Positions 18,751 through 44,439 of a DNA stretch of 64,000 nt are shown here, piece after piece. The translations under genes were made by a program, and so were the position numbers. The notes under the pieces were generated by a model, which saw only the letters and a program-made list of their open reading frames with translations, ran no database searches and had not been told where the DNA came from. Source of the stretch: Bacteroidota bacterium (GTDB taxonomy: Bacteria > Bacteroidota > Bacteroidia > 2-12-FULL-35-15); the NCBI GenBank assembly GCA_040388745.1, contig JAZKBF010000043.1:84405-148404 (forward strand), in the 5' to 3' direction. Position 1 is the stretch's first letter. Each line of letters opens with the position of its first letter.

Positions 18751-19467
18751 ATGAAAAGAATAGCGGCCATAGTTCCAGCATACAATGAAGAAGAGGCAAT
18801 AGCATTTGTTGTGAATGATATTAATACTTTGGCGGAATCTCAACAATTATTGATAGATGTAATTGTGGTAAATGATTGTTCTAAAGATTCCACAGCAGAG
18901 GTAATTTCCAAACTTAACTGTATTGCTCTAAACCTGCCTATTAATTTAGGAATAGGCGGTGCAGTACAAACTGGTTTCAAATACGCTTTAAAAAATGGTT
19001 ACGACTATGCTATACAGATTGATGGAGATGGACAACATCCTGCATCCGAAATTCCAAAGATTGTAAATGCAGCTATTAACGATAATTTCGATGTTGTTAT
19101 TGGTTCCCGGTTTATTTCAAATGAAGGTTTTCAGTCATCTGCTGTTCGAAGGATGGGAATTAATTATTTTAAATGGCTGAATCGCCTGTTGGTGGGTACA
19201 GTTGTAAATGATAGCACTTCAGGTTTTCGTTTAATTAATAGAAAGGTTTTGGAAATAGTGGCAGAGTATTATCCTGATGAATATCCAGAACCGGAAGCGA
19301 TCATTATGTATTCGCTTAATAATTTTAAAATTGGCGAAGTCCCTGTAACAATGAAAGAGAGGCAAGGAGGGGTTTCATCAATTGGTACCATTGCATCGGT
19401 TTATTATATGTTTAAAGTTACACTGGCAATAATTTTTACGTTTACACGAATGACATTCAGGAAATAA
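18751..19467 (+). CDS. GT2 glycosyltransferase, DPM1/GtrB-like polyprenyl-phosphate sugar synthase
   Basis: 238 aa; AAIVPAYNEEEAI, VVNDCSKDST, DGDGQH DXD region; family assignment from these motifs. Confidence 0.8.
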   Translation: MKRIAAIVPAYNEEEAIAFVVNDINTLAESQQLLIDVIVVNDCSKDSTAEVISKLNCIALNLPINLGIGGAVQTGFKYALKNGYDYAIQIDGDGQHPASEIPKIVNAAINDNFDVVIGSRFISNEGFQSSAVRRMGINYFKWLNRLLVGTVVNDSTSGFRLINRKVLEIVAEYYPDEYPEPEAIIMYSLNNFKIGEVPVTMKERQGGVSSIGTIASVYYMFKVTLAIIFTFTRMTFRK

Positions 19468-19522
19468 AGTAAAAAGAGACAAAAGGCAAAATTCAAAAAT
19501 TTTTGACTAAAAAAATAACATT

Positions 19523-19870
19523 ATGGCAAAAATCCAGATCGTAGCAATAGCAGTTAGTTTACTGTTTTTATTTTATATTGTTCGTTTGATCATTAAAGGG
19601 AAATTACGCGAAGAATATTCAATAGTTTGGATCGTGTGTACAATTGTATTGATCCTGTTTTCATTTTGGAGAAACGGGTTGGAAGTTCTTGCGAATACAT
19701 TAGGTGTGTACGAAGCTCCAAACCTAGTGTTTACAGGTGCTATCTTTGCCATTTTAATTTATCTTTTGCATTTAAGTATCGTGGTTTCAAAATTACATTC
19801 GCAAAATAAGCAGTTGGCACAAGAGATCGCATTGCTAAAAAACGAGTTTGTTAAAAACAAAGCCAATTAA
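19523..19870 (+). CDS. DUF2304 small membrane protein (typical partner of GtrB/DPM1-like GT2; putative lipid-linked sugar translocation accessory)
   Basis: 115 aa, 3-4 TM, immediately downstream of the GT2; this pairing recurs in many bacteria. Confidence 0.55.
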   Translation: MAKIQIVAIAVSLLFLFYIVRLIIKGKLREEYSIVWIVCTIVLILFSFWRNGLEVLANTLGVYEAPNLVFTGAIFAILIYLLHLSIVVSKLHSQNKQLAQEIALLKNEFVKNKAN

Positions 19871-21856: not shown

Positions 21857-24226
21857 TTATTTCTTTGATTTTGCTTTTTCGTCTTTTGCCCAATTCAAAT
21901 TGCCTTTTGCTAATCGGTGTGTAGGATCAATTTGTAAGGCTTTGGTACAAGCCTCAATGGCTTTATCCCATTGTTTTAACATGTTATAAGCCGCGCCCAT
22001 ATTGCTGTAAGCGCTTGCATATTCAGGTTGAAATTCTAATGCTTTTTTACAAGCTTCAATACTTTTTTCATATTGGCCTTGTTGATAATAGGCTAAACTT
22101 AGATCGATCTGGCTACCGGCAGATGGTGATTCATTAGCAGCGGTTTCAACTTTTGAGGTTTTATCGCGCTGACTTAAAGCATCAGCGAGGTTGTTTTTTG
22201 CTAACTGAAAATCAGGTTTGATCTCTATTGCTTTTTGACAGGCAGCAATACCTTTATCGTATTGTTTCATTAAGGTATATGCGGAGCCCATATTGTTATA
22301 AGCATCGGCATAATCAGGTTTTAATTTTACTGCTTCTAAACCGGCATTAACGCATTGTTCGTATTTACCTGCCTGATAATACATTAAACTTAAATTAAAA
22401 TATTTTTCTGCCGAAGGGTCTTTCTTTACTTCTTCTTCAGTCATTTCAATTTTCCCTTTTTGGTTTTTGCTTGCTTCCAAATATTGCAATGCTTCCGGGT
22501 TGTTAGGTATTATTTGTAAAGTACCCTCAGCTATATCTTTAAGTTTAGTCCAATTACCGGTATCGTTATATGCTTTCATCAATATACTGCGAGCGCCAAT
22601 ACTAGCAGGGGAAAGCTCGATACATTTTTCTAACATAGGTATCGCTTCGGTATACCGTAATTGACCACATAAAAAATTGCCATAAAAAAACCAGGTATCC
22701 GGAGTATTTCCTCCATATTGAGTTGCACTTTTAAAATAATTTTCTGCACTTACTTTATCACCTGTAGCGTTTTTCAAAACGCCCATGTTTATGTGTAAAG
22801 AATAGTAATAGGGCCACATAGCTATGGCTTTGGTAAAACATTTTTCAGCTTCCACGTAATCACCTTTTCCCATTCTGCTAAGTCCGTAATTCATTAATCC
22901 ACGGGCATTTTTTGGGCTTTTAATAGTTACATCATACCATAAACTCTCTTCAGTTTTCCATACTTTATTACGTTCGTAAGTTCCAAAGGCGTAACCTGAA
23001 AGTACCACTATTACAATAAAAACAGCCATTATATCATAGCTAAAAGGTAGTTGTTCCAGACGTTTTTTATATTTCATTAACAATAAACCAATGGCCCAGC
23101 ATACACTTATTACAAGCCCGACATAAGGAAAAAAGATACGGTGGTCATTTAATACCTCAGCAAAAGGAATTACACTTGAAGAAGGGACCAATGCTAAGAA
23201 AAACCAAAGGATACCATAACTTATAGGGCGAAGACGTTCATCTTTAGAGAAAAGGAATGAAATATAAATCATTAAAAAAATAAATGCACAACCAATAAAA
23301 AATCGAATGTTCCAAATGTTTTGCAGCGGTTCCCAATCGCTATCTGCACTTAAGCCGAAGGGAAAAAAGAAAGTAGTAAAATAATGAGCAATTACAAATG
23401 GTTGAGTAATTAAGTAGTTGATAGTGGATGAACCGCCAGATTCCCAAGTTTTAGGGGTTAAGTGGTCAATAAATAAATATAATGCGGCACAAAAAATAAA
23501 TGAAGGGATCGTTTTTTTAATTACACTAATTAGTTGTTTTGACTGCTTTTTATTAAAGATATCATACAAACTCATTTTTTGCTCAAACAAAAGGATGTAA
23601 AAGAATAATAAGGGTGCAAACATAACCGTGGTTGGTTTTGCCAGACCACCAATACCGATCGGAATCAGGTAGAGATGAGTTCTTTTACAATAGGGCGAAA
23701 ACATATACAGAACAAAGCCAAGCACCACAAAAAACGTGGATTGCAAATCGGACCGGGCGATAACGTAATTGATCGTTTCGGCATTGGCAGGGTGCAAAAG
23801 GTACCATGCAACGGCAATTGCAGCAATATAAAAATTCCAGTTGTTTTTATAGGAGGTATTAAAGAACTTGAAAATAAAAAAGAACATTAAAATACCCTGT
23901 AACAAAAAAAGGATAAATGATGAAAGGTGAAAATAAAACATGTTATACCCTTTCCCTAACCAATAATCGAAAGCGAGTGATGTGCTAACAAAAGGCCGGT
24001 AGGATTGGTTGCTGGGCAGGGAACTAAAAGTTGTTGCGTCTTTGAAAAAACGCGGAATGTTTTTTATATCCTGAATAAATAAATTGTTTTCTACAGCATG
24101 GGAATCATCAAAATGAAAAGAGTTGTTAAAATGATTTGAATAAACAAGTGTTACAACTATTATCAGTAATAGGAAATAAACTAAAGTTTTGCCTTTAGAT
24201 AAATTTTCAAATAAATTTTTAATCAT
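21857..24226 (-). CDS. TMTC-like membrane protein: N-terminal DUF1736/PMT_2-type polytopic (GT-C-like) domain fused to C-terminal TPR repeats
   Basis: 789 aa; ~11 TM in the first ~420 aa with first-loop FHFDDSHAVENN (the acidic DD motif of DUF1736/TMTC); C-terminal ~350 aa of TPR units (A.AY.N.G.AY....Y..A...L.). Confidence 0.65.
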   Translation of the reverse strand: MIKNLFENLSKGKTLVYFLLLIIVVTLVYSNHFNNSFHFDDSHAVENNLFIQDIKNIPRFFKDATTFSSLPSNQSYRPFVSTSLAFDYWLGKGYNMFYFHLSSFILFLLQGILMFFFIFKFFNTSYKNNWNFYIAAIAVAWYLLHPANAETINYVIARSDLQSTFFVVLGFVLYMFSPYCKRTHLYLIPIGIGGLAKPTTVMFAPLLFFYILLFEQKMSLYDIFNKKQSKQLISVIKKTIPSFIFCAALYLFIDHLTPKTWESGGSSTINYLITQPFVIAHYFTTFFFPFGLSADSDWEPLQNIWNIRFFIGCAFIFLMIYISFLFSKDERLRPISYGILWFFLALVPSSSVIPFAEVLNDHRIFFPYVGLVISVCWAIGLLLMKYKKRLEQLPFSYDIMAVFIVIVVLSGYAFGTYERNKVWKTEESLWYDVTIKSPKNARGLMNYGLSRMGKGDYVEAEKCFTKAIAMWPYYYSLHINMGVLKNATGDKVSAENYFKSATQYGGNTPDTWFFYGNFLCGQLRYTEAIPMLEKCIELSPASIGARSILMKAYNDTGNWTKLKDIAEGTLQIIPNNPEALQYLEASKNQKGKIEMTEEEVKKDPSAEKYFNLSLMYYQAGKYEQCVNAGLEAVKLKPDYADAYNNMGSAYTLMKQYDKGIAACQKAIEIKPDFQLAKNNLADALSQRDKTSKVETAANESPSAGSQIDLSLAYYQQGQYEKSIEACKKALEFQPEYASAYSNMGAAYNMLKQWDKAIEACTKALQIDPTHRLAKGNLNWAKDEKAKSKK

Positions 24227-25812: not shown

Positions 25813-27000
25813 CTAATTTAATGATTGCAAATACGCTAAACGACCTTTAATCAGTTGTAATACTTTATTTGTAAAAAAACTAAGGAGTACAATTGTGCCT
25901 GATAAATATAGAATAATCATTGCTATATAACGCGACCAATGCTCGTTGGTAAGGCCTGTAGCAAATCTTTCCCAAATGCTATTAAAAACAAGTAAAGTCC
26001 CTGTTAAATAACAAAGTAGGGCGATGAGTATTGAAGTTGAATGCTCAAAAATATAATAGAGTATTGTTTTATTTTGTTTTGCATTTGGCTGAAGAGTGAA
26101 GCATACAACATTATAAGTAATATGCGAAATGCTAAGTAAAATAATCCCAATTAAACCAAATACTGTTGATACAACAAATCTATAGATCATCCAATCTTCA
26201 AGGAAATGATTTTTTAAGTAAAATAAAAATGGGGAAGCAATAATTAATAATGCAATTGACAAACAGCAAACAGCAATCAGATTGAATATTTTATATGGGA
26301 TATATAAAAAAATGTTTTCAAGTATCACAGATAAAAAGCGTTTCCCATCTTTCCATATTTTAAGTTTAGATTCCCCTTCACGTTCCAAATAAGGCATATC
26401 TTTTTCAAGAATAGTAAGATCTTGACTTAATACAGCTCTTGCGCTCATTGCGGGTGTAAAATGCAGGCCATCAGGTAATGGCATAATTTTATGCAAGGCT
26501 GTTTTGCGAATAACCCTCATACCACTGGCGGTATCTTTTATCCGTTTGTTTGCAACCAAAGAAAGCATTACTGAAAATAGTGTATTACCAATCCTTCTTA
26601 TAAGTGGCATTTCACTTTGTTTATTTAATCGCGAGCCTAAAGCAACATCAGCACCTTGCTCAGTGATCAGGTTGCATAGTTCCGAAAAAAATAAAGGGTC
26701 ACATGTGCCATCGGCATCAAGAAATGCAAGTAAGTCAGCATCCTCCCTGCTTTTCCAGCCTTCTTTTATAGCAGCACCGTATCCGCGGTTTTTTTCAAAA
26801 ATGATAAGATCTATTTTATCAGAGTGACTTTTAGCAATATTTACAGTATTATCGGAAGATCCATCGCTAACTACAACAATGTCAATTGAAGTTACTTTGC
26901 TTTTTTCACAAATAGCAGATTTCGCTTGCTGTGTCCGTAATATTATGCTCTCAATGCTCTTTTCTTCATTCAGAGCGGGAATTACAATTAATAATTTCAT
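25813..27000 (-). CDS. membrane-anchored GT2 glycosyltransferase (DPM1/GtrB-like catalytic domain + C-terminal ~5-TM domain)
   Basis: 395 aa; LIVIPALNEEKSI, VVSDGSSDNT, LDADGTCDP (DXD); C-terminal 170 aa polytopic. Confidence 0.75.
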   Translation of the reverse strand: MKLLIVIPALNEEKSIESIILRTQQAKSAICEKSKVTSIDIVVVSDGSSDNTVNIAKSHSDKIDLIIFEKNRGYGAAIKEGWKSREDADLLAFLDADGTCDPLFFSELCNLITEQGADVALGSRLNKQSEMPLIRRIGNTLFSVMLSLVANKRIKDTASGMRVIRKTALHKIMPLPDGLHFTPAMSARAVLSQDLTILEKDMPYLEREGESKLKIWKDGKRFLSVILENIFLYIPYKIFNLIAVCCLSIALLIIASPFLFYLKNHFLEDWMIYRFVVSTVFGLIGIILLSISHITYNVVCFTLQPNAKQNKTILYYIFEHSTSILIALLCYLTGTLLVFNSIWERFATGLTNEHWSRYIAMIILYLSGTIVLLSFFTNKVLQLIKGRLAYLQSLN

Positions 27001-27171: not shown

Positions 27172-28596
27172 TTAAGTTCGTTTTTTTTTTAATGCCAGAA
27201 AATATATAAATATAAAAGAAGGAAATAGTTGAAAAAATAACCTGTGAAGGGAAGAGGAAAGGTAATAATTTAAATCTAAATGTGAGATTATAAAAATAAA
27301 GAAAAACCCTATTAACATTAATAAGAGCAGAATAAAATTAGATACAAAGCTTGGATTATTTTTGAGACTTACGCCTTTATATAAAATTCCAAAAAGAAAT
27401 AACCACCAAGGATTTAGTGCCCATTTTCCAAATGCGCTAAATTGATCAAGATACCATCTGCTTGCTATTACATACCTCGAAGAATCTGTAAGCTTTGCAA
27501 ATGCATGTGTTCCTTGTGCATCTGCCATTATATCAGATGGTGGAGCTATTTTTATTTTATAATATGCCAAGAGAATTAATATGGGAAGCATACCTGCAAG
27601 CAGGTATAACATTTCAACAAGTAGCACGCGGTAATTTTTTTTAAAAAACAATAATACTAATTGCGAAGTAAATAAACACATAATAAAAAACAATCCTTCA
27701 TTTTTACTCCAAGCGGCTAATCCTGCTGCAATGCCCGCCATTATAAGAAAATGGGGTTTTGTCGAAGTTTCGTTACGGGCATAAGTCAATAATACTATTG
27801 TTGCTAAATAAAAATAGCCAATTGTATTATCGGCATATTGGGAATCACCCATTGTCATATAAAAAGGAGTACAAAGCAATATTAAACCAGCGATAAGCCC
27901 ATTTGTTTTATTAGAAAAAAAGCTAACAGACGAAGCCAAAAGGCCAATGGTGCAAAAAGTAATTATGAAGCAAAAAATTATCGGAACCCACACTGTTTCA
28001 TTTTGGATCAGTATCCAGCAGCGGGCAATAAAGCCTTTCTGTAACAAAGGGTAATCTAAATGGAGGTCATACAGATCATCCGGGATCATTTTGTGAAATG
28101 AATTTGCCCAGCCTTGAGGGTATCGGCTAATGAATTTAGCGCTTAAATTCCAATTCGCCCAGGCATCCCATAAGCCATGAGGAGTTTCGATGCTATCGAA
28201 TAGGAAAATTCCAGCATCCATCATCCAGGCGTAAATATAGATCCCTGTAATTAAAAGTAAAATAGGATTTTGAAGTAATCTATTCAAATAGCTGATTTTA
28301 TGAGGCAGGGCAGGTTTGCTTGTGTTAAACCATTCGAATTGATAAATTGTTTTCGGATAAATTTTAAATTTGAATATTAGAAAAGCCAACAATCCAATTT
28401 CAATCAAAAAGGTCAGGAAAGTTGTAAATCCAAGTAAATTAAAAAAAATGAAAATAACAGAGGAAATACCTATTCCTATTGGGAAAGAAAGATTGATAAG
28501 AAGCCTGAATTCAATCGTTTTGGTTTCTTTAAAAATTAGAAGGCAAGACACAAAGCCGAGCAAAAGAGGTATAAACATTGAAAAAAACAACATCAT
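27172..28596 (-). CDS. large polytopic membrane protein, paralog A of 41037..42530 (uncharacterised; possible GT-C-type glycosyltransferase or polymerase)
   Basis: 474 aa, ~12 TM; roughly 50-55% identical by eye to the 41037..42530 product, including LINLS.P.GIGISSVIF, HGLWDA..NWNL.AKFIS, PFYMTMGDSQYADNT, AWSKNEGL, HRLFFQLFP.FIFIYFL; no named family recognised by eye. Confidence 0.5.
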   Translation of the reverse strand: MMLFFSMFIPLLLGFVSCLLIFKETKTIEFRLLINLSFPIGIGISSVIFIFFNLLGFTTFLTFLIEIGLLAFLIFKFKIYPKTIYQFEWFNTSKPALPHKISYLNRLLQNPILLLITGIYIYAWMMDAGIFLFDSIETPHGLWDAWANWNLSAKFISRYPQGWANSFHKMIPDDLYDLHLDYPLLQKGFIARCWILIQNETVWVPIIFCFIITFCTIGLLASSVSFFSNKTNGLIAGLILLCTPFYMTMGDSQYADNTIGYFYLATIVLLTYARNETSTKPHFLIMAGIAAGLAAWSKNEGLFFIMCLFTSQLVLLFFKKNYRVLLVEMLYLLAGMLPILILLAYYKIKIAPPSDIMADAQGTHAFAKLTDSSRYVIASRWYLDQFSAFGKWALNPWWLFLFGILYKGVSLKNNPSFVSNFILLLLMLIGFFFIFIISHLDLNYYLSSSLHRLFFQLFPSFIFIYFLALKKKRT

Positions 28597-29045
28597 TTAG
28601 CAAGTACGATTAAACCATTATTAAAATCTTTAACTATGTGCCAACCATTATTTAAATGAAAATTGGTTTCGGGGTTAATATGAACTGACGAATAAAGGTT
28701 GTATAGAATTGTATCGCAAACAATTCCATCAATGGAGATTATATTAGGAGTTAAATAATACCGTGTAAGAGCGAAATGCATTGCACCTGTACCATAATCT
28801 TCATTGGCTTCTCCAAAATACGAGAAATGCGAGGGTTTAATAAATATTTTTTTTACCTCTTCGTACCGGTTTCCGTAAAGTGTAATGTAATCATTACCAT
28901 AATTTTTCTTAATAAACTGTACAGGACTTTCAAACTTTTCTTCATATTTAAGGAACGTAATATACATTTGTCCTACTATGATGGATAGTAAAATTAATAT
29001 TAGAATGTTATTGACAACATTAATGATCTGTATATTCGATTTCAC
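28593..29045 (-). CDS. small single-TM protein, paralog A of 42527..42976; 4-nt ATGA overlap with the downstream large membrane gene
   Basis: 150 aa; N-terminal TM; conserved YGNDYITLYGNRY, and a C-terminal 22-mer FHLNNGWHIVKDFNNGLIVLAK nearly identical to its paralog. Confidence 0.5.
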   Translation of the reverse strand: MKSNIQIINVVNNILILILLSIIVGQMYITFLKYEEKFESPVQFIKKNYGNDYITLYGNRYEEVKKIFIKPSHFSYFGEANEDYGTGAMHFALTRYYLTPNIISIDGIVCDTILYNLYSSVHINPETNFHLNNGWHIVKDFNNGLIVLAK

Positions 29046-29159: not shown

Positions 29160-30380
29160 CTATAAGCCGCCAAAAAATCCCGCAGCAGTAAGCAAATTAT
29201 ATGACATTGGGTCAAAGATATTATGTATTACAAAAAAATTACGATAAGACAAAAAATCATTCGTTAGGATCAGTAAAAAAGAGGAAATGATAATTGCCCT
29301 TTTTATTCCAATGGAAAGATTAATTTTTTTATAAAGCTCAATAATCATCAAAGCAGCACTGATTCGGTATATTAGGTCGATAGGTTGGGCATAACGCACA
29401 TTTTTAGGAAGAAAAGAAAACACAACAATAAAATAAACGAAGAAAAGAAACAAAATACGTAGTTGTGGATTCTGATTTTTATGAATTGTAAAATAGTAGC
29501 CGACAAAAGAAAGAAAAAGAAGCGAAGTGAATGGGGACAACATAAAATAATCCACAAAATACTGATACCATGGTCCCGAGTTATACCAAAGTATATAGGT
29601 GTGTGGAACACCGATATTGATCTCTCGCATAATAGTAAAAACAGCCACTGTTTTATTGATATCGCCAATAGCAAAAAGATATATACAAAAAGAGATCAAA
29701 AGCGGGCTTAAAATCAAAGCTATAAGTTGTATAATATTAAAAGGTTTCTTAAAATAGAATTTTTCCAATAATAATATTCCGCCAAAAAAAGGTAAAATAA
29801 AAACAGCACTTTCTTTTACCTGAATGCAAAGACTGAAAAACAATATAAACAGGAGCATTTTGATTAAATCAGGCTTGTTCAAATAATTAATAAATGTGAA
29901 TAAGGAAAGGGTGAAAAATAAATAATATTCGGATTCGGAAAGGGCCCTGCCAGCCAGTCCACTGCTTAAGGGTGAAATACAAATTAATAATCCAGCAAGA
30001 AGTGAAGCCGTTGCTCCCCAATACTTTTTTATAAAAAAGAAGCAAACAATGCAATGGATTATATAAAAAATAAGCGATAAGCAAGATAGCGAAGTGAATG
30101 AATCAGAAAATTTTAAAGCAATCGCATTTAAAAAAGCATGTACAATTCGAATTGGTGGAGGATATAACTGAGATATAGGGTTGCTCAAAAAGGCATCAAC
30201 ATTTAGTTGAAATCCATCTATTCCATGTTCCGCTATATTCTTTGCCTGAAGGTAGTATGTTATTTCATCTCCCTTGTTTTCAGTAGGGAAATATTTTATT
30301 ATTCTCGCAGCAGAAAAAAATAATGCAACAAAGAAAATAATACCGAAATAAAAATGCTTGCTTTTTATTAAAAATTGCAT
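29160..30380 (-). CDS. polytopic membrane protein, PMT_2/ArnT-like GT-C glycosyltransferase candidate
   Basis: 406 aa, ~11 TM; first extracytoplasmic loop ENKGDEITYYLQAKNIAEHG carries the DE acidic motif typical of GT39/GT83-type GT-C enzymes; assignment tentative. Confidence 0.45.
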   Translation of the reverse strand: MQFLIKSKHFYFGIIFFVALFFSAARIIKYFPTENKGDEITYYLQAKNIAEHGIDGFQLNVDAFLSNPISQLYPPPIRIVHAFLNAIALKFSDSFTSLSCLSLIFYIIHCIVCFFFIKKYWGATASLLAGLLICISPLSSGLAGRALSESEYYLFFTLSLFTFINYLNKPDLIKMLLFILFFSLCIQVKESAVFILPFFGGILLLEKFYFKKPFNIIQLIALILSPLLISFCIYLFAIGDINKTVAVFTIMREINIGVPHTYILWYNSGPWYQYFVDYFMLSPFTSLLFLSFVGYYFTIHKNQNPQLRILFLFFVYFIVVFSFLPKNVRYAQPIDLIYRISAALMIIELYKKINLSIGIKRAIIISSFLLILTNDFLSYRNFFVIHNIFDPMSYNLLTAAGFFGGL

Positions 30381-32826: not shown

Positions 32827-33753
32827 ATGCCTAAATTATCTATTATCATTCCATGTTACTTCAATGAATTGAATATCCCTACTACATCACAGGCTTTGTT
32901 ATTGAATGAGAAATTATTCCCCAATGATGTTTCTTTTGAATATGTTATGGTAGATGATGGCAGTAAAGATCGAACATTTGAGGCACTGAGTTTATTCAAA
33001 AATCAATATCCCGAAAAAGTTACTATTGTAAAACTCTCGGGGAATTTCGGTTCCTATAATGCAATTCAGGCCGGCATGGAATATGCTACCGGTGATTGCA
33101 ATATAGTTATAACTGCTGATCTTCAAGATCCCCCTGAATTGATGCCCAAAATGTATGAATATTGGTTGAAAGGATTTAAATTAGTATTAGCAAATAGGGA
33201 GGAGAGAGACGACCCATTTTTAACCAAAATCCTAGCGTCCGGTTATCAAAAGTTAATTAAAAAATTCGCTCTTCCAAATATTCCTGATGGGGGGTTCGAC
33301 TTTTGTTTATTTGACAGACAATTAAGGGAAGATGTTTTGGCAATACAGGAAAAAAACACAAACTCATTATATTTATTGGTGTGGTTAAAATACGAGTATG
33401 CTTGTATTCCTTATAAAAGAAGAGAAAGGGAAATCGGAAAATCACGTTGGACAATGAAGAAAAAAATTCAACTATTTATTGATTCATTCGTTTCATTTTC
33501 TTATGCGCCACTTCGGTTTATTACGATCAGCGGGATTTTGCTTGGTAGTGTATCATTTATATATGCACTGTATGTTCTTTACGCAAAACTCTCGGGTCAC
33601 GTAGATGTTGAAGGATGGACTACCATGATGATGGTTTTTTTACTCGTATCATCATTTCAAATGTTGGCGATCGGAATTATTGGAGAATATCTTTGGCGGA
33701 ATTTTGAGGCTACTCGCAACCGGCCAGCATACGTTATCGATAAAGTATTATAA
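32827..33753 (+). CDS. GT2 polyprenyl-phosphate sugar transferase, ArnC/GtrB-like (two C-terminal TM helices)
   Basis: 308 aa; SIIIPCYFNE, VDDGSKDRT, DLQDPPE region; C-terminal TM pair. Confidence 0.8.
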   Translation: MPKLSIIIPCYFNELNIPTTSQALLLNEKLFPNDVSFEYVMVDDGSKDRTFEALSLFKNQYPEKVTIVKLSGNFGSYNAIQAGMEYATGDCNIVITADLQDPPELMPKMYEYWLKGFKLVLANREERDDPFLTKILASGYQKLIKKFALPNIPDGGFDFCLFDRQLREDVLAIQEKNTNSLYLLVWLKYEYACIPYKRREREIGKSRWTMKKKIQLFIDSFVSFSYAPLRFITISGILLGSVSFIYALYVLYAKLSGHVDVEGWTTMMMVFLLVSSFQMLAIGIIGEYLWRNFEATRNRPAYVIDKVL

Positions 33754-33845: not shown

Positions 33846-35396
33846 TTATTTTGAAATTTGGTATTTGCGAATAAGTCGAATTTTTCCATTCACCTCAATC
33901 TTATATAACATTAAAAACAATATTCCTATAAAAAGTAACATTACGCCTCCCTGAATATAATACATTTGTTCGCTCATCCATGGACCGATATTCATCCACA
34001 GTATTTGACTAGGAAAACCCATATTTCCATTTTCATCAATGTTCAAGGTCGAATTAATTTCATAAATATTTAGCAATAGCCATATTTTAGAGGCAACAAA
34101 ACTCAACAATCCAACAACTATGTAAAAATTAGTTGAAAACGAATATTTGTTAATAGCTTTAATTAGAAAAACGATTATCCAAGGAAGAAGGTTAATTAAG
34201 TGCCTACTTTCGGTTGTAATACCGAATAGAAATAAATTCAGTCCAAATGCTGCAACAATACCCCAGCCCAATTGCGACACCGTTTTACAAAAACTGTCCC
34301 AAAATATAATTAATAGACAAACAATAATCCCAAAGTAACTTACGTGTGCAACAAGAGAAATAAGAGGTTTGATCAATGAGGATAAAGTAGGGCCACTCAA
34401 AATTTGAGAGATTGGGTACATTGAATTTGGCTTTGGATGCAAAAAATGCACGATCATTAAAACACTAATAAAAACACCAACAGAAATTAATAGCCTTTTG
34501 TAATTAATTTTTTTCAAAAATAAAGTGAAATCAAGAAGCGATCTATTAAGAAATAATTTTGCGAAAAAAAAGTAAAGTAATACTATTCCTGATATACTAA
34601 AAAACAAAAGATTACGATCTATTTTTGCAACAAAACTCACATCGGTGTCCTTGTTTTGAATAAAAATAAAGAATATCGTAATTCCTAAGATATAGAAAAC
34701 CGAAGCGCTATAAATAAGAATTTTTTGCCATTTCAGAGTTTGCGAAAATGGTAAGAAGCATATAGGAAAAGCAATTAACAATAATCCCTGATAATAGGAC
34801 ATTTGCCAGGAAAATGCAGACAATAACGTAATTATAATTATTCCCTTAATATTGTTTTTAAGGTAAAAATACAACAAAGCAGAGCTAAGCATTAATCCAA
34901 ATGTATCAGTCATTACTGGCAGATAAAACGGGTACTTGATTACTCCGAAATTGATTAAAAATAAGGTAAAGGCGAGTAATTGGTTTCTAAAAGATATTTT
35001 AAATAAAATGAGCATACATTTCAAAAAATAACAAGAAAGAGCAATGCTTACTAAATTTAAAATTTGAAAAGCTATGAAAATGTTTTGTTCCGAAGGTTTT
35101 AATGATAAAAGTTTAAAAAACACACTTATGACGAATGATGGGAATATTCTATGAACGTAATAGATATCGAAAAAAAAACTTTTTGTGAAGTCAGGAATAA
35201 AAGTTGAAAACACAAAACCATCCGTAGTGAGTCCACCGTTATAAGGGTATGTTTCACCAAATAAAATGTAAAACATCCCGTAGTAAAGCATTAATACAGG
35301 GAAGAACCATTTGTTATTAAGGATTTTTTTTAACTTGATCATAGTATGCATAAAAAACCAAAGATAGAAAAAGAAATAGATATAGAAAAAACTCAT
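33846..35396 (-). CDS. large polytopic membrane protein of unknown function (polymerase/GT-C-like candidate); true start probably the internal MIKLKKIL
   Basis: 516 aa, ~13 TM, extremely hydrophobic; no recognisable catalytic motif. Confidence 0.4.
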   Translation of the reverse strand: MSFFYIYFFFYLWFFMHTMIKLKKILNNKWFFPVLMLYYGMFYILFGETYPYNGGLTTDGFVFSTFIPDFTKSFFFDIYYVHRIFPSFVISVFFKLLSLKPSEQNIFIAFQILNLVSIALSCYFLKCMLILFKISFRNQLLAFTLFLINFGVIKYPFYLPVMTDTFGLMLSSALLYFYLKNNIKGIIIITLLSAFSWQMSYYQGLLLIAFPICFLPFSQTLKWQKILIYSASVFYILGITIFFIFIQNKDTDVSFVAKIDRNLLFFSISGIVLLYFFFAKLFLNRSLLDFTLFLKKINYKRLLISVGVFISVLMIVHFLHPKPNSMYPISQILSGPTLSSLIKPLISLVAHVSYFGIIVCLLIIFWDSFCKTVSQLGWGIVAAFGLNLFLFGITTESRHLINLLPWIIVFLIKAINKYSFSTNFYIVVGLLSFVASKIWLLLNIYEINSTLNIDENGNMGFPSQILWMNIGPWMSEQMYYIQGGVMLLFIGILFLMLYKIEVNGKIRLIRKYQISK

Positions 35397-36317: not shown

Positions 36318-37823
36318 ATGCAAGCAATAAAGATCAATGAACTATTTTTCAAACGTGCGTCCATTGTTTTTTTTGCCGTTTTGTTTATTGTGGGATGCTT
36401 TGTCTTTTCTGATTATGGGATATCTTGCGATGAGCCGGACTTCTCTCGTTATAATGGGGCAGTAAATTACAATTTTCTTAGTACAGGAGATTCTAAGGAA
36501 TTGCTTGCGTCCACCGAAAAATACCACGGGCCGGCTTTTGAAATAGTTTTATATTCTGTCGAAAAATTATTGAAAGTTACCGATTCCCGCAACATCTATT
36601 TGTTGCGGCATGGTTTAACTTTTTGGGTTTTTTTCATTGGCACCCTGTTTTTCTATTTATTGGGCTTGAAATTTTTTAAAAGCCATGGAGCTGCTCTATT
36701 ATGCAGCGTTATGTTAGTTGCATCCCCCCGAATTTTTGCGGAGAGTTTTTTTAATTCGAAGGATATAGTCATGCTTTGTTTTTGCATTATTGCGAGTTAT
36801 ACCGCTTTCATATTTGTAGAGCGTCAAACAATAAAGTGGGCTTTTATTCATGCGGCTTGTTGCGGATTTGCAACTGACATTCGGATTATGGGATTGTTAA
36901 TACCTATTATAACGTTATATTTATATGCTATGCAAAAACAAAGGAAATTTACTCCTGTTTTGTTTTTCATATCCTACACTTTGTTCTTCATTATTGCTTT
37001 TTGGCCAATTATGTGGCTCAATCCTGTCCAGCATTTTATTGGGGCGCTCCGGGAAATGACTCATTTCCCAGTATTTATGACTGCTTTATATTTTGGGAAG
37101 TTGATTGACTGTCAAAATTTGCCTTGGCACTATTTACCTGTATGGATTTCCATTACAACGCCTTTTTTGTATGTCATTTTTTTTCTGATAGGAATATTTT
37201 TCGCGGTAAAAAACTCATTTGTTAATTTTTCAAACACTCTGCCGATTCAATTCTCGTTATTTATGTTTGGCACACCTATCCTGGCTGTAATAATTTTAAA
37301 CTCTACTGTTTACGATTCTTACAGACATATATATTTTGTATATCCTTATCTCTTATTAGTCGCAGTATATGGCTTTATTCAACTAACTCAGACTATAAAA
37401 AAAAATTGGGCGGTAAAAATAATTTCCTATTCAACCGGCCTGTCCATTCTATTAGTTTTTGTTTTCATGATTGTAAATCATCCTCATCAAAATGTATATT
37501 TTAGTTTTTTAGCCGGAAAAAATGTGAGGCAAAATTTCGAATTGGATTATTGGGGATTGTCGTATCGACAAGGATTAGAATATATTTTAGCAAATGATAA
37601 ATCCAGTCATATAAATATTGCTGCCGATACAGGGGAATGCCTTTTGAATTTTAATATTATCCCGATTGAGGATAGAAAACGCCTTGTATGGACAGATATA
37701 AAATCAGCAAAATATTATTTAATGAATTTTAGGTGGCATCCTTCAGACTATGATTTTGGAACTACAATATTTGAAATTAAAGTTGATAACGAAAAAATTA
37801 TGGAAGTTCAAAAACAAAAATAA
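36318..37823 (+). CDS. polytopic membrane protein, GT-C-type glycosyltransferase candidate
   Basis: 501 aa, ~12 TM in the first 400 aa plus C-terminal soluble domain; first loop FSDYGISCDEPDFSRYNG carries a DE acidic motif. Confidence 0.45.
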   Translation: MQAIKINELFFKRASIVFFAVLFIVGCFVFSDYGISCDEPDFSRYNGAVNYNFLSTGDSKELLASTEKYHGPAFEIVLYSVEKLLKVTDSRNIYLLRHGLTFWVFFIGTLFFYLLGLKFFKSHGAALLCSVMLVASPRIFAESFFNSKDIVMLCFCIIASYTAFIFVERQTIKWAFIHAACCGFATDIRIMGLLIPIITLYLYAMQKQRKFTPVLFFISYTLFFIIAFWPIMWLNPVQHFIGALREMTHFPVFMTALYFGKLIDCQNLPWHYLPVWISITTPFLYVIFFLIGIFFAVKNSFVNFSNTLPIQFSLFMFGTPILAVIILNSTVYDSYRHIYFVYPYLLLVAVYGFIQLTQTIKKNWAVKIISYSTGLSILLVFVFMIVNHPHQNVYFSFLAGKNVRQNFELDYWGLSYRQGLEYILANDKSSHINIAADTGECLLNFNIIPIEDRKRLVWTDIKSAKYYLMNFRWHPSDYDFGTTIFEIKVDNEKIMEVQKQK

Positions 37824-39265: not shown

Positions 39266-40894
39266 TTAGATGTTACTTTTAGAAAATATTTTTATTTGAA
39301 AATTGATCTTGTCAATAATTTGCCGTTCAGTTATATTAATCCCTTCATACTGATAGGCTTTAAAATTAAGCCAATGAGTTTTTGTTTCAATTAATTTACA
39401 GGAATCATCCGGTGTATATTTATGATATAAGGTTAAGTCATTCACGGGGTAAAAAAAACAACAATTCGTTACTACAAAAGTGTCGGGTTGAGTTTTTGCT
39501 TTTACGGGAAATTTTGAATAATCTATTATTTCTGTTTGATCCGGAGATACTGACCAGCCATTAACATACTCGCAAATGTTTTCGATGTTACTTAGATTGG
39601 TCGTTTCATTCAGCTTCCAATAAACATCTCTGGGGTATGAAAATGAACTATAATGGATAAAATTAGTTCCGAAATTTAATATAAAAACTAATGAGATCAT
39701 AAACAATACCAAATCCTTTTTCTTCGTTATTTTAATTAATAGCATATTTATTGAAAACAAAGAAAAGAGACAAATGAAGGGAACATATTGATGTAATGAT
39801 CTTCCCATTAAATATAAAGTATTAAAGAAATAGCCCACACTTGCGTAAGCTAAATACAAACCAAAAACTCCAATGCCTAACAACATGATAAGTGAATTTT
39901 GTTGGAAAGTTTTGTTTCTGATTTGATTTAACATTATTAAACAAAAAAGTGGGATGCATATTATCAAAATTATTCCTGTTACCCACTCTACCTCAAAAAG
40001 GTACTTAATTATAAATGTATATGATTCTTCGGAAGATCCTTGATTTACTATACTGGAAGCATGAAGTGCATCCGATATATAGGAGACTCCTCCAAGTCTG
40101 GACATTCCCTCAAAAATAAGCAAGCAATATATGCTTCCTAAAATATAATAGAATGAATGGTAAATTTTATTGAAAACATTTTTTTTAGTTAAATTATTAA
40201 AGAATAATAAAAATAAACCTAAGAAGAATAATGGGAAATATCCCGGATAAACTAAATAACCAAAAAATGAACCGATTCCTATAAGCACGGATATTTTAAA
40301 CGATAACTTGTCTTCTTTCGTATATTTAAAAATTTTATAAATGATCAAATAGAAGATCAAAAGACTGGTATCATACGCAAGCACATGTCTTAGATACAAG
40401 TATGAATTTGTTAATGAACTGTATAGTAAAACACTTAGTAAAGCTAAAAAGTTGTCCTTTAAAACCAATTTTGAAACTTTATAATGGACAATTAGGATAA
40501 AGCAATAAATAATAAAATTGAAAATAAATAATGGGTATGAATTATTGCTTTCATAAGTATATAGGTTAAATATGTAGGAAGTAAGTTGTTGTATGGCATT
40601 TGGAATAGTTGATAATATGACATCTCCAGGTTTGGATTTGGTTGAAAATATGTCTGTCATTGCTTCTCCTATCTTTAGTTCCGATAAGTCATGTAATGTT
40701 TGTTCTGCTGCAAAAAAGCGAAATTCATCAGGAAAGGTTAAGAAACCGGACCCCATTAAATTTAGTTTGATAACTGTAATCAGCACAATACTTGTAATCA
40801 CTAAATATTTTAGTGGCTGTTTGCTAAAGCAATAAGCTAAAGCTTGCAGTTTTAATTTTATTTTAATAAAAAATGTATTGATGGTTAAACTCAT
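39266..40894 (-). CDS. polytopic membrane protein with C-terminal ~140 aa soluble domain; GT-C-type candidate
   Basis: 542 aa; first loop FLTFPDEFRFFAAEQ (DE motif); ~11 TM then a soluble Cys-containing C-terminal domain (ArnT-like architecture). Confidence 0.4.
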   Translation of the reverse strand: MSLTINTFFIKIKLKLQALAYCFSKQPLKYLVITSIVLITVIKLNLMGSGFLTFPDEFRFFAAEQTLHDLSELKIGEAMTDIFSTKSKPGDVILSTIPNAIQQLTSYIFNLYTYESNNSYPLFIFNFIIYCFILIVHYKVSKLVLKDNFLALLSVLLYSSLTNSYLYLRHVLAYDTSLLIFYLIIYKIFKYTKEDKLSFKISVLIGIGSFFGYLVYPGYFPLFFLGLFLLFFNNLTKKNVFNKIYHSFYYILGSIYCLLIFEGMSRLGGVSYISDALHASSIVNQGSSEESYTFIIKYLFEVEWVTGIILIICIPLFCLIMLNQIRNKTFQQNSLIMLLGIGVFGLYLAYASVGYFFNTLYLMGRSLHQYVPFICLFSLFSINMLLIKITKKKDLVLFMISLVFILNFGTNFIHYSSFSYPRDVYWKLNETTNLSNIENICEYVNGWSVSPDQTEIIDYSKFPVKAKTQPDTFVVTNCCFFYPVNDLTLYHKYTPDDSCKLIETKTHWLNFKAYQYEGINITERQIIDKINFQIKIFSKSNI

Positions 40895-41036: not shown

Positions 41037-42530
41037 CTATTTGACTAAATTATGATTTTGTTTAAGAGTTTTTTGTTTAACCCCAAGAAAATATATAAAA
41101 ATAAAAGTTGGGAATAGTTGAAAAAATAATCTATGTATAGACGTAGAAAGATGGAATTCTAATGGCAATGGAGTTATAATGTAAATAAAGAAAAAGCCAA
41201 GTAGCATTAATAAGAACAAAATAAAAGCTGAAAGCAGGCTGTCTCGATTTTCTTTAAGATTGATACCTTTATAAATAATCCCAAAAAGAAATAACCACCA
41301 AGGGTTTATTACCCATTTCCCAAATGTTGTAAATTGTTCAAAATACCATTTACACACTGTTTCGTATCGGGAATAATCTGTTAGTTTAATAAATGTTTCT
41401 GCTCCTTGTGCACTCACAATGTCATTGGGTGGGGCGATTGAGATTTTGTAATATGCTATTAAAAATAAAATTGGCAACATACCCAACAATAAATATTTTA
41501 GTTCGGTTAACAATTCGCGATAATTTTTGAAAAAAAGCAGCGAAAATTGGGAACAAAATAAGCAGGCAATAAATAGTAATCCTTCATTTTTACTCCAGGC
41601 CGATAAACCAGCTGTAATTCCTGCTACAATTAATAATTGTGGTTTTATTGAGGCCTCTCTCCGTGCAAAAGTTAATAGTACAACTGTTGCAAGGTAGAAA
41701 AACCCTACCGTATTGTCGGCATACTGCGAGTCTCCCATTGTCATATAAAAAGGGGTGGCAAGTAGAATTAAGCCTGCAATTAGTCCTTTGGTTTTATTTG
41801 TAAAAATGCTTACTGAAGTGGCCAAAAAACCGATGGTGCAAAAAGTGAATGCAAAAGAAACAACTATAGGAGCCCATACACTTTCATTTTTCAAATACAA
41901 CCAACAGCGCGCTATATAGCCGGTTTGTAATAATGGATAATCCGGATGGAAGTCATCCGAAACCATTTGATGAAATAAATGTGGCCAATCAAAAGGAGCA
42001 AGGCTGATAAACTTAGCCTTTAAATTCCAATAATTAAATGCGTCCCATAAACCATGAGATTCTTTAATGCTATCAAAATAGAAAATGCCGGAGTCCATCA
42101 GCCATGCATAAAAATAAATTACGGTAAATAAAAGTAAAATTGGATTTTTAAGCAATTCCTCTCCCCAACAATTGAAGCTATTCCTCAAGCGCTTGGCAAT
42201 ACTATTAGAACCAGTTTTTGGTGATGGCTTTTGAAGCTGCAGTTCGGGTATAATATGTTTAAGCCCTGAAAATTGACCAATTGTTTTGTTTGATTTTTTG
42301 ATTTTAAAAGCCAGAAAAATGATCAATCCAATTTCTACCAAAGAAATCAAGAAAAATGGCAATTTTAATAAATTTAAAGAAATAAAAATAACTGATGAAA
42401 TCCCAATCCCTAAAGGTAGAGATAGGTTTATAAGAAAACGGAAATTGGTATTGTCATTTTTTTCAAAAACTAAAATACAGAACAAGAGTCCGAGAAAAAA
42501 CGATAATAATATTGAAAAAATAAGCATCAT
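41037..42530 (-). CDS. large polytopic membrane protein, paralog B of 27172..28596
   Basis: 497 aa; same conserved blocks as paralog A; has an extra ~25 aa insertion near residue 85-110. Confidence 0.5.
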   Translation of the reverse strand: MMLIFSILLSFFLGLLFCILVFEKNDNTNFRFLINLSLPLGIGISSVIFISLNLLKLPFFLISLVEIGLIIFLAFKIKKSNKTIGQFSGLKHIIPELQLQKPSPKTGSNSIAKRLRNSFNCWGEELLKNPILLLFTVIYFYAWLMDSGIFYFDSIKESHGLWDAFNYWNLKAKFISLAPFDWPHLFHQMVSDDFHPDYPLLQTGYIARCWLYLKNESVWAPIVVSFAFTFCTIGFLATSVSIFTNKTKGLIAGLILLATPFYMTMGDSQYADNTVGFFYLATVVLLTFARREASIKPQLLIVAGITAGLSAWSKNEGLLFIACLFCSQFSLLFFKNYRELLTELKYLLLGMLPILFLIAYYKISIAPPNDIVSAQGAETFIKLTDYSRYETVCKWYFEQFTTFGKWVINPWWLFLFGIIYKGINLKENRDSLLSAFILFLLMLLGFFFIYIITPLPLEFHLSTSIHRLFFQLFPTFIFIYFLGVKQKTLKQNHNLVK

Positions 42531-42976
42531 TTAGCAAGAACAATTAAACCATTATTAAAATCTTTTACAATATGCCAACCATTTTTCAAATGGAAGTTAG
42601 TTGAAGGTGTAATTTGTTTTGAGTTGTAAAGGTTATAGATAATCGTATCCCGAACAATTTGATTTCTTAAAATTAAATTAGGCGATAAATAGTATTGAGT
42701 AAGGATGTAATGAAGTGCCCCGGAAGCAAAGTCTTCATTGTTTTCTCCGATGTAAGTTAAATTGGTTGGCTTTGGAAATAGTTTTTTTATTTCTACAAAA
42801 CGATTTCCATATTGGGTAATGAAATCATTCCCATAGTCTTGTTTTGTAACTATTACAGGGTTTTCAAATTTGTCTTCATATTTAATAAATGAAGCATATA
42901 GTTGCCATACAAAAAAGCAGAGCAATGCTATCAATAGGATATTATTGGCAATTTTAATAATGGGTTCCTTCATCAA
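42527..42976 (-). CDS. small single-TM protein, paralog B of 28593..29045; 4-nt overlaps with genes on both sides
   Basis: 149 aa; C-terminal FHLKNGWHIVKDFNNGLIVLAK is nearly identical to paralog A; YGNDFITQYGNRF conserved. Confidence 0.5.
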   Translation of the reverse strand: MMKEPIIKIANNILLIALLCFFVWQLYASFIKYEDKFENPVIVTKQDYGNDFITQYGNRFVEIKKLFPKPTNLTYIGENNEDFASGALHYILTQYYLSPNLILRNQIVRDTIIYNLYNSKQITPSTNFHLKNGWHIVKDFNNGLIVLAK

Positions 42977-44439
42977 TCAAAAAATAATTTTTGAGGTAAA
43001 TTTCCCGAAACGTTAATTTTATTAAAACGTTTAAAATTTGTATGTTTCTTCACAGCCACGATCACCTGAAAAATCATTATTAAAAACATGATAAGAACAG
43101 GAATGATCCTGTCGAGGCGGATTAATGTTAAGGCATTGCCACTGAAATCGCCACCACGGAATAAAAAGTATAAACTTGGTAGACACAAAAATATGCCTAC
43201 ATAAAACATGATTGAAATATATTTTTTATAAAAAACATCTTTTTCTTTTAATATCGGCAATAATGCAAGAATTGGCAATACTGATGTAAATTGATATTCC
43301 CACACGGTATTATAACTTAAAAAGAAGGATAATGAAATTGCCATCACCAACAATAATGTACTTTCCAGGCGGATTTTTTTATCCTCAATAAAAGCAACTC
43401 CTATAGATAAAAACAAACTAACATAGATCGGTATTTTATAAATACCTGATGGTGTAGATTTTTCAGCGATAGTGTCTATAAATACAGGTAAAGAAAAAAC
43501 ATCAATATGCATGAGCTTGTATTCTGATTGCGCAATTAAATTCAACCAATGAATACTATTATCTCTCATATATTCATTTAAAACAAAATGGTTTTTATAA
43601 ATGTTCATATTTTCTTTTATAAAATCAAAGTCAAAGACAATACTTAGCAGTTTATTAAAACCAACCCCTTGCGGATTTAATTGCGGTAATAGTATAAAAA
43701 GCAGAGAAACAACTGAATAGATTATTAGACTTTTAATAGTTGTTTTGCGCGTTTCTTTTGTTAAAAGTAACAGTGGAAGCATTAGTAATACAATGGGTTT
43801 GCTGAAAAATGAAATAAGTAAGCCAACAAGGAGTTTTTTATTGGCGGCTTTTATATCCTTTTCATTCTCAGAATATGTTAATTCATAAATGGAAACTAAA
43901 ATTAAGGTAAGTGCAAGTACCAAAGGAGCGTGCATATTACCTACAAACAGCATCCAATAAGTAGGGAAGGCGCATAACATTAAAAAATAGGAGAGATGTT
44001 TTTTAAAATTATTTGTTGTTATTTTTGAGATCAGGTAACCACAATATGCCATTACTGCTATCGAAAAAAGGGCAAATAACCAGTAACTGGTCCATGGCGA
44101 AAAAAATGAAAACCAGGAAGCCACAAAAAGGCTGAATGCGGGATGTGCCAGGTACCAGGTGGAGTGGGGGCCATAAGGAGTCCCGCCCCAGGTGTCAAAT
44201 ATACTACGTCCTTCAAGCAGATTTAAAAAAGATTTTGGCACTGCAAAATAATCGATCCCCTGAACACTAGGATTCAGCTCTGCACCATAAAAAAACATGT
44301 TTAACCATCCGAAATGCAAGGATAGAAGCATTGTTGCAACTATTGCAATAGTTGCAATTGATAAATACCAGCCAGAATTTTGTTTCATATGTTTCAAAAG
44401 TATTAATTTTTTAGTTAGGGATTGAATTGATCTGCACAA
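42973..44439 (-). CDS. polytopic membrane protein, DUF2029/GT87-like (mannosyltransferase-like) candidate; start may be internal Met at 44388
   Basis: 488 aa, ~12 TM; general resemblance to the DUF2029 family; weak assignment. 4-nt overlap with the downstream small gene. Confidence 0.4.
   Translation of the reverse strand: MCRSIQSLTKKLILLKHMKQNSGWYLSIATIAIVATMLLSLHFGWLNMFFYGAELNPSVQGIDYFAVPKSFLNLLEGRSIFDTWGGTPYGPHSTWYLAHPAFSLFVASWFSFFSPWTSYWLFALFSIAVMAYCGYLISKITTNNFKKHLSYFLMLCAFPTYWMLFVGNMHAPLVLALTLILVSIYELTYSENEKDIKAANKKLLVGLLISFFSKPIVLLMLPLLLLTKETRKTTIKSLIIYSVVSLLFILLPQLNPQGVGFNKLLSIVFDFDFIKENMNIYKNHFVLNEYMRDNSIHWLNLIAQSEYKLMHIDVFSLPVFIDTIAEKSTPSGIYKIPIYVSLFLSIGVAFIEDKKIRLESTLLLVMAISLSFFLSYNTVWEYQFTSVLPILALLPILKEKDVFYKKYISIMFYVGIFLCLPSLYFLFRGGDFSGNALTLIRLDRIIPVLIMFLIMIFQVIVAVKKHTNFKRFNKINVSGNLPQKLFFD

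Follow-up and report, generated by a model that had tools for sequence, protein, structure and literature searches.

A duplicated pair of overlapping genes in a Bacteroidota glycosylation island suggests an undescribed two-subunit GT-C enzyme

Results

Organization and divergence of the two modules

The 64,000-nucleotide (nt) stretch of contig JAZKBF010000043.1 of a Bacteroidota bacterium (assembly GCA_040388745.1), hereafter the window, contains two copies of a two-gene module, A and B. In each module, a short gene encoding a membrane protein with one predicted transmembrane (TM) helix, the small protein, is followed by a longer gene encoding a polytopic membrane protein, the large protein. 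The initial annotation had described both copies as diverged paralogs of a translationally coupled module. Its four open reading frames (ORFs) were found exactly at the positions that it gave, all on the minus strand and in the order small then large (Table 1), and the stop codon of the small gene overlaps the start codon of the large gene by ATGA in both modules. For the small protein of module B, the shorter version that starts at the ATG has the same length as an NCBI-sourced homolog (P0023). Module B is a chain of three genes, as a GT87-like gene also overlaps the start of small B: its TGA stop codon overlaps the TTG/ATG start region (42971-42976, minus strand). This GT87-like gene lies 0.25-7 kb from the pair in related metagenome-assembled genomes (MAGs), and its contact with small B seems particular to this genome.

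Large A and large B share 61% identity over 492 columns (BLASTP, E = 0.0), and small A and small B share 62% identity over 144 columns (E = 1e-68). These values are well past a similarity of hydrophobic segments and past the 25% identity that the initial annotation had set as its refutation threshold. The shared motifs quoted in it were also found, including the C-terminal FHL[NK]NGWHIVKDFNNGLIVLAK of the small proteins. At the DNA level the modules are 68-69% identical, with about 51% identity at third codon positions. Synonymous divergence (dS) between A and B is saturated, with values of 1.4-1.8, and the ratio of nonsynonymous to synonymous divergence (dN/dS) is 0.19 for the small genes and 0.14 for the large genes. 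Saturated dS and these ratios point to an old duplication with purifying selection on all four genes, in agreement with the view that both copies were retained.

Table 1. Position and predicted characteristics of the two modules and of other genes of the island
Feature	Position	Strand	Characteristics
Small gene A	28593-29045	-	150 aa, GTG start; N-terminal TM helix and alpha/beta domain predicted periplasmic
Large gene A	27172-28596	-	474 aa; GT-C fold, PMT_2/ArnT-like; three extra N-terminal TM helices before the putative catalytic-loop helix
ATGA overlap, small A stop/large A start	28593-28596	-
Small gene B	42527-42976	-	149 aa from TTG; 148 aa if ATG at 42973
Large gene B	41037-42530	-	497 aa; GT-C fold (PMT_2)
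ATGA overlap, small B stop/large B start	42527-42530	-
PpgS-like glycosyltransferase family 2 (GT2)	18751-19467	+	238 aa; NCBIfam mycobacterial polyprenyl-phospho-GalNAc synthase PpgS E 4e-26, below cutoff
DUF2304 protein	19523-19870	+	115 aa, three TM, E 7e-29; 55 nt after the PpgS-like GT2
GT-C-like, C-terminal tetratricopeptide repeat (TPR) array	21857-24226	-	789 aa, nine predicted TM in the first ~420 residues, long loop after helix 1
GT2, four C-terminal TM	25813-27000	-	172 nt downstream of large A; Pfam Glycos_transf_2 E 9e-23
GT-C-like polytopic	29160-30380
GT2, PgfS/ArnC-like	32827-33753		PgfS model E 5e-58, ArnC model E 2e-39, both below cutoffs
Polytopic	33846-35396	-	516 aa, 11 predicted TM, no family match
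GT-C-like polytopic	36318-37823
GT-C-like polytopic	39266-40894	-	542 aa, 9 TM, C-terminal ~130 aa without predicted TM
Weakly GT87-like polytopic	42973-44439	-	488 aa, ten TM; Pfam GT87 E 8.5e-5, below cutoff

The small protein

The small protein shows a single N-terminal TM helix followed by an alpha/beta domain of about 115 residues, which is predicted to be periplasmic. Its AlphaFold2 (AF2) model, with a mean predicted local distance difference test (pLDDT) score of 88, begins with a long N-terminal helix (residues 2-33), continues in a helical linker and ends in a small alpha/beta domain of five strands. Small A is 100% identical to an NCBI protein annotated as "hypothetical protein V4547_15110". 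The 84 close homologs include no other kind of name: all named ones are hypothetical proteins from Bacteroidota or Bacteroidia MAGs. No match to the small protein was found in Pfam, NCBIfam or the sequences of the PDB, and the structural search of the model gave no significant fold match. Weak fold resemblances of the domain were to nucleotide- or ligand-binding alpha/beta folds (THUMP, HPRT and periplasmic binding proteins). Comparison of the domain with parts of four other polytopic GT-C-like proteins of the window by hhalign gave probabilities below 1%, and no homology between the small protein and PIG-X/Pbn1 was established.

Conservation is highest at the C-terminal end. Residues 127-150, the last 24, form a beta-hairpin ending in NGWHIVKDFNNGLIVLAK and are 90% conserved across 41 homologs, compared with 55-66% elsewhere in the protein. 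Third codon positions vary within this stretch of the gene, and therefore the selection acts on the protein. Furthermore, the small proteins invariably end at the same conserved residue. Twelve polar residues of the soluble domain are invariant: D52, R60, E63, E79, Q95, Y96, D111, T112, N116, H136, K139 and D140. In the TM helix, Q26 is invariant in the close family and is not conserved in the wider family.

The orientation of the small protein was predicted from charge. The net charge is +2.7 in the N-terminal tail and +0.4 behind the helix, and an orientation with the N-terminus inside and the C-terminus outside is favored in 48 of the 60 members of the family. A pair of cysteines in the soluble portion was found in just nine of the 60, and there is no conserved disulfide.

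The large protein

The initial annotation had not placed either protein in a named family and had proposed to look for a GT-C fold in the large one. This fold was found: the large protein is polytopic and its modelled structure superposes on solved GT-C enzymes. The Pfam family PMT_2 (PF13231) matched large A with 38.2 bits and large B with 42.3 bits (E 1e-10), above the gathering threshold of 26.1 bits. The large protein can now be placed as a PMT_2/ArnT-like GT-C protein, while the small protein belongs to no catalogued family. In the structural alignment with ArnT the sequence identity is only 12%, and the large protein is a member of the GT-C superfamily whose likeness to ArnT and to CAZy family GT83 is at the fold level only. 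NCBIfam has no family for it at E <= 0.1, and a profile of 44 large homologs matched no chain of the PDB at E <= 1. NCBI labels its relatives as "glycosyltransferase family 39 protein". PF02366 (PMT) and MIR domains showed no match at E <= 0.1 in either large protein of the window, and PF02366 is carried only by some large relatives of 37-42% identity. The family 39 name is generic, and by these sequence comparisons the large protein is not a strict CAZy GT39 PMT/POMT.

Asp144, in the motif HGLWDAW, and Asp181, in DYPLL, are invariant in the 44 large homologs, and D256, K298 and E300 are further invariant residues. D144 sits in a net acidic loop right after the helix formed by residues 111-137. 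This is the position where GT-C enzymes carry the catalytic acid, and D144 is the putative catalytic residue.

Three hydrophobic helices (residues 2-21, 30-54 and 59-79) and a K/R-rich, poorly conserved loop precede helix 111-137. Since this positively charged loop follows the three helices, the N-terminus of the large protein would be periplasmic according to the positive-inside rule, on the same side as the predicted location of the C-terminus of the small protein. The three-helix extension is a hallmark of the paired large family, because it is absent from five other GT-C-like proteins of the window, which show one helix and then a long loop. Helix 2 of the extension contains a nearly invariant G41-x-G43-x-x-S46 motif, and a G-rich motif is visible at this place in remote members too. 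The ATGA overlap also fixes A as the first base of codon 2 in every large gene; residue 2 of the large protein is accordingly M in most of the pairs and I or T in the remainder.

Distribution and conservation of the gene pair

Close relatives were scanned using one genome per GTDB species, which yielded 17 loci from about 14 MAGs, all belonging to Bacteroidota, and the window was added to this set. All 25 small homologs of the set are followed by a large homolog on the same strand, and conversely a small gene lies ahead of each complete large homolog. ATGA joins the two genes in 24 of these pairs, and TGATG does so in the remaining one (L017). The initial annotation had called for a survey of copy number, and this does vary among the relatives, with one to three pairs per locus. 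Locus L009 (9992-19344, MAG JAHEXZ010000018) shows three pairs within 10 kb, one of them inverted, and its second and third pairs are arranged tail to tail.

The wider family was collected by an exhaustive hidden Markov model (HMM) search of 1.84 billion cluster representatives, which gave 193 proteins at E <= 1e-3. Of the best 150 of these 193 matches, nearly all are stand-alone proteins of 105-180 residues, and none of the 150 is long enough to include a GT-C domain, as a small-large fusion would be. The 84 close homologs, the 193 representatives and the AF2 model establish the small ORFs as genuine, conserved genes, as the initial annotation had supposed. A few longer members of the family carry other extra domains. 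One of them, P0349 (L021, 437-1522), shows a weak PA14-like segment (E 0.002) and two extra hydrophobic helices N-terminal to the domain. PA14 is a carbohydrate-binding, extracellular domain, and this arrangement is consistent with an outside location of the small domain. P0250 and P0342 have an extra region of at least 100 residues without Pfam match, C-terminal in the former and N-terminal in the latter; the two regions are alike by eye only (GWAW/GWAT motif).

A remote set of 11 members was reached through small proteins with E values of 1e-8 to 2e-4 or large proteins of 32-37% identity; two of its contigs are too short to tell the gene order. In all nine others, the small gene directly precedes a gene for a protein of about 460-480 residues (one is cut at 423 residues by the contig end), with a spacing of -4 nt in five loci and of -1, 0, +2 and +3 nt in the rest. 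The DNA of eight of these loci was readable, with a GC content of 29-67%, and their downstream proteins match the large-family HMM with E values of 1e-89 to 1e-166. The close-family HMM of the small protein matches seven of the eight remote small proteins, and the remaining one, from L024, was traced through its homology to P0218 (E 3e-7). Altogether, the small gene lies directly upstream of the large gene in 34 of 34 informative loci (25 close and nine remote), with a spacing of -4 to +3 nt. In L022 and L024 the pair stands alone amid unrelated housekeeping genes, and therefore it is a self-contained two-gene unit. This unit is old and is found in lineages of very different base composition; its remote members span several lineages and possibly several phyla, as argued from their GC content only.

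Distance matrices of the small and large proteins are correlated with r = 0.84, a value reached by none of 2000 permutations in a Mantel test. Orthologs of module B were found in other MAGs, with identities of 71-77% for the large protein and 62-74% for the small protein, and module A forms a separate lineage. Therefore, the duplication predates these species. The duplicating unit is the pair, not the single genes.

The glycosylation island

The window is chromosomal Bacteroidota DNA. Its housekeeping genes include those encoding a DUF4271 protein, TatC and Lnt, and it also encodes a protein of beta-propeller repeats that ends in a sorting domain for type IX secretion (Por_Secre_tail; 4752-6458, plus strand), which fits a Bacteroidota chromosome. 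A plasmid origin was considered and rejected, as tblastn found no match of the small protein in PLSDB.

Both modules are located in an island of about 27 kb (approximately 17.6-44.4 kb of the window) that is rich in periplasmic glycosylation genes. It encodes about eight polytopic GT-C-like proteins, three GT2 proteins of the polyprenyl-phosphate-sugar synthase type, four Acyl_transf_3 proteins, a hexapeptide acyltransferase, a methyltransferase and a KpsF-like SIS-CBS isomerase. The island holds four of the five membrane acyltransferases of the window. Besides the large proteins of the two pairs there are six further polytopic proteins, five of which show a GT-C-like helix pattern. Homologs of the 516-, 501-, 542-, 488- and 789-residue proteins of the island recur near pairs in related MAGs. 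The 789-residue protein is 82% identical to a protein of locus L010 and has an architecture that we take to be that of the eukaryotic TMTC O-mannosyltransferases. The 516- and 542-residue proteins show no Pfam or NCBIfam match, yet many related MAGs encode homologs of them beside the pairs, with 47-72% identity. Both were examined as possible relatives of the large family and discarded, since hhalign detected no similarity.

The GT2 protein encoded downstream of large A has its best NCBIfam similarities with AglJ, dolichyl-phosphate hexose transferase and ArnC, all of them below the cutoffs. A homolog adjoins the pair in L011 and L014. It is a candidate synthase of the lipid-linked sugar donor and lies outside the duplicated unit. 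The PpgS-like GT2 and the DUF2304 protein (18751-19870) form a second kind of small-partner pair in the island. With its GT87-like and PpgS-like members, the gene set of the island resembles actinobacterial lipoglycan machinery more than the known glycosylation loci of Bacteroidota.

Comparison with known systems

ArnT, the undecaprenyl-phosphate-L-Ara4N:lipid A transferase of CAZy GT83, and the PMT_2 group share the GT-C fold with the large protein. However, the large protein has three TM helices more at its N-terminus. ArnT carries a C-terminal periplasmic domain, whereas the secondary structure of the modelled large protein shows none, and a separate single-pass protein with a predicted periplasmic domain is always encoded upstream. 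In the one-chain GT-C enzymes ArnT, PglB and AglB, the C-terminal periplasmic domain would occupy the role that we propose for the small protein.

The closest known arrangement is that of the glycosylphosphatidylinositol (GPI) mannosyltransferase I (PIG-M/Gpi14 with PIG-X/Pbn1), with the difference that the complex proposed here is inferred from the genes. In that enzyme, the single helix and the luminal lobe of Pbn1/PIG-X pack on the GT-C protein Gpi14/PIG-M in a 1:1 heterodimer (PMC12653191).

The island can also be compared with the three-component paradigm of periplasmic glycosylation, which comprises a GtrA flippase, a GtrB-type GT2 and a GtrC-type or other GT-C enzyme (PMC11127046). As in these systems, GT-C enzymes are encoded beside GT2 polyprenyl-phosphate sugar synthases in one island, and GT2 proteins of the GtrB type are present. 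In contrast to them, no GtrA-like flippase was found in the window, and the pair occurs without a GT2 neighbor in other lineages. Furthermore, the small partner has one TM helix instead of the four of GtrA, and its gene is coupled to the GT-C gene and not to the GT2 gene.

The DUF2304 proteins GacJ and Rv3632 are named in the literature as small membrane partners of the polyprenyl-phosphate sugar synthases GacI and PpgS, respectively. Both proteins stimulate their synthase. The likeness with GacI/GacJ and PpgS/Rv3632 is that a small membrane protein is encoded beside a glycosylation enzyme, and the window itself contains a pair of DUF2304 protein and GT2. However, DUF2304 proteins consist of three TM helices without a soluble domain, their partner is a GT2 enzyme of the cytoplasmic face and not a GT-C enzyme, and they show no sequence relation to the small protein.

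Discussion

We consider it probable that each module encodes an obligate heterodimeric periplasmic glycosyltransferase that depends on a polyprenyl-phosphate-linked sugar, a functional analog of PIG-M/PIG-X. The small and large proteins would be translated from one mRNA, with re-initiation at the ATGA, and the synthesis of both is expected to be tied. The small protein would insert with its N-terminus in the cytoplasm, and its TM helix would pack on the large subunit, probably on the three-helix N-terminal extension. Its periplasmic domain of about 115 residues, with the conserved hairpin, would lie over the outer loops, where it may stabilize the enzyme or form part of the acceptor site. The large subunit would transfer a sugar from the polyprenyl-phosphate-linked donor at the periplasmic face of the inner membrane, with catalysis through the invariant acidic D144 of the first outer loop, and the acceptor may be an envelope glycan, a glycolipid or a protein. 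The three GT2 proteins of the island, one of them encoded 172 nt from large A, provide a context for a donor of this class. The two paralogous pairs probably differ in sugar or acceptor specificity.

Several points weigh against this reading. The complex of small and large protein is itself something that we infer, and the four-base overlap, which is the commonest gene overlap in bacterial operons, is alone no proof of interaction. The predicted topology follows from the positive-inside rule alone. The correlation between the distance matrices is partly explained by the shared phylogeny of the species. In addition, neighbor-joining places small A with the B-type clade and large A with the other paralog clade; this mismatch of module A is the only clear incongruence among 23 pairs and could be due to recombination between modules or to a tree artefact. 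Finally, no GtrA-type flippase was found among 47 of the 49 window ORFs of at least 120 residues plus the DUF2304 ORF 19523-19870 in a gap, which is shorter than this limit, the two ORFs left out being nested on the opposite strand of larger genes. A GtrA-type flippase could be encoded outside the window.

The small protein might instead be a separate membrane-anchored periplasmic factor of the same pathway, such as an acceptor-handling protein, a glycan-modifying enzyme or a chaperone, that is co-expressed with the large protein without being a stable subunit. Adjacency and overlap show co-expression and not binding, and the many invariant polar residues of the soluble domain could make up a separate binding or active site. 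The weak fold likenesses are to THUMP, HPRT and periplasmic binding proteins. However, adjacency in 34 of 34 loci, over a GC range of 29-67% where the DNA was readable, is more typical of subunits than of pathway partners, and some genomes contain no other pathway-related genes near the pair. The domain is also small and matches no catalytic family. We regard a separate factor as unlikely, although it is the best of the alternatives to a heterodimer.

A second alternative gives the helices the main role. The TM helix of the small protein and the three-helix extension of the large protein would form a four-helix module that flips or loads the lipid-linked donor and replaces a GtrA-type flippase. 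In such a load-and-transfer machine, this module would bring the lipid-linked sugar across the membrane or into the active site and the hairpin would close over the acceptor. This would amount, if true, to a bacterial GT-C enzyme of a new architectural class, which occurs in lineages of very different base composition and works without a separate flippase. The window without a detected GtrA-like gene, the restriction of the extension to the paired family (it is missing in the five other GT-C-like proteins of the island), the pair as a self-contained unit in other lineages, the G41-x-G43-x-x-S46 motif that extends to remote members and the invariance of Q26 in the close family all fit this arrangement. 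Nevertheless, it is deduced purely by counting helices, and a flippase gene may lie in another part of the genome. Moreover, the conservation of Q26 does not extend to the wider family, and conservation of the small protein peaks in the soluble C-terminal hairpin and not in the helix. Such a machine is therefore very unlikely in our judgement.

At least as improbable is a cytoplasmic location of the small domain, with the N-terminus outside, from where it would regulate the enzyme or couple it to the cytoplasmic donor synthase. The charge distribution favors the opposite orientation in 48 of 60 members, while the 12 others do not favor an inside N-terminus. The PA14-like segment and the two helices that precede the domain in P0349 fit an outside location, and the GT2 gene is not adjacent to the pair in many genomes. 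For a cytoplasmic domain speak the missing conserved disulfide, with two cysteines in nine of the 60 members only, and the fact that the best weak fold matches are cytoplasmic folds.

A single gene broken into two ORFs by a frameshift, as a pseudogene or an assembly error, would be topologically possible, since the small protein is predicted to end on the side of the membrane where the large protein begins. This reading is effectively refuted by the occurrence of separate ORFs in each of the 34 informative loci, which come from independent assemblies and lineages, by purifying selection on both ORFs, by the constant end of the small protein and by the lack of a protein of fusion length among the best 150 of 193 matches from the 1.84 billion representatives.

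The heterodimeric glycosyltransferase thus remains our preferred reading. A full-text literature search gave no account of a bacterial GT-C enzyme that has a single-pass partner of this kind. To our knowledge, the characterized bacterial GT-C enzymes (ArnT, PglB, GtrC-type enzymes and most mycobacterial arabinosyl- and mannosyltransferases) have each been described as one catalytic polypeptide, and it is mainly among eukaryotic enzymes of the endoplasmic reticulum, such as PIG-M/PIG-X and oligosaccharyltransferase (OST), that dedicated accessory subunits with a single TM helix are known. The large protein adds a new member to a superfamily already known; the novelty of the unit lies in its dedicated partner, which is single-pass and uncatalogued, in the N-terminal extension and in the coupling of both genes without exception. 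The pair suggests an undescribed two-subunit bacterial enzyme and offers a clear and cheap experimental hypothesis.

If this is true, the small proteins of this rare paired family, which have no Pfam or NCBIfam entry and are called hypothetical where named, would receive a testable role, and bacteria would provide a simple two-gene model of how accessory subunits support GT-C enzymes. The small ORFs would also be flagged as necessary partners whenever such GT-C enzymes are expressed. The island as a whole points to an unexplored and elaborate periplasmic glycan-building pathway in this uncultured Bacteroidota lineage.

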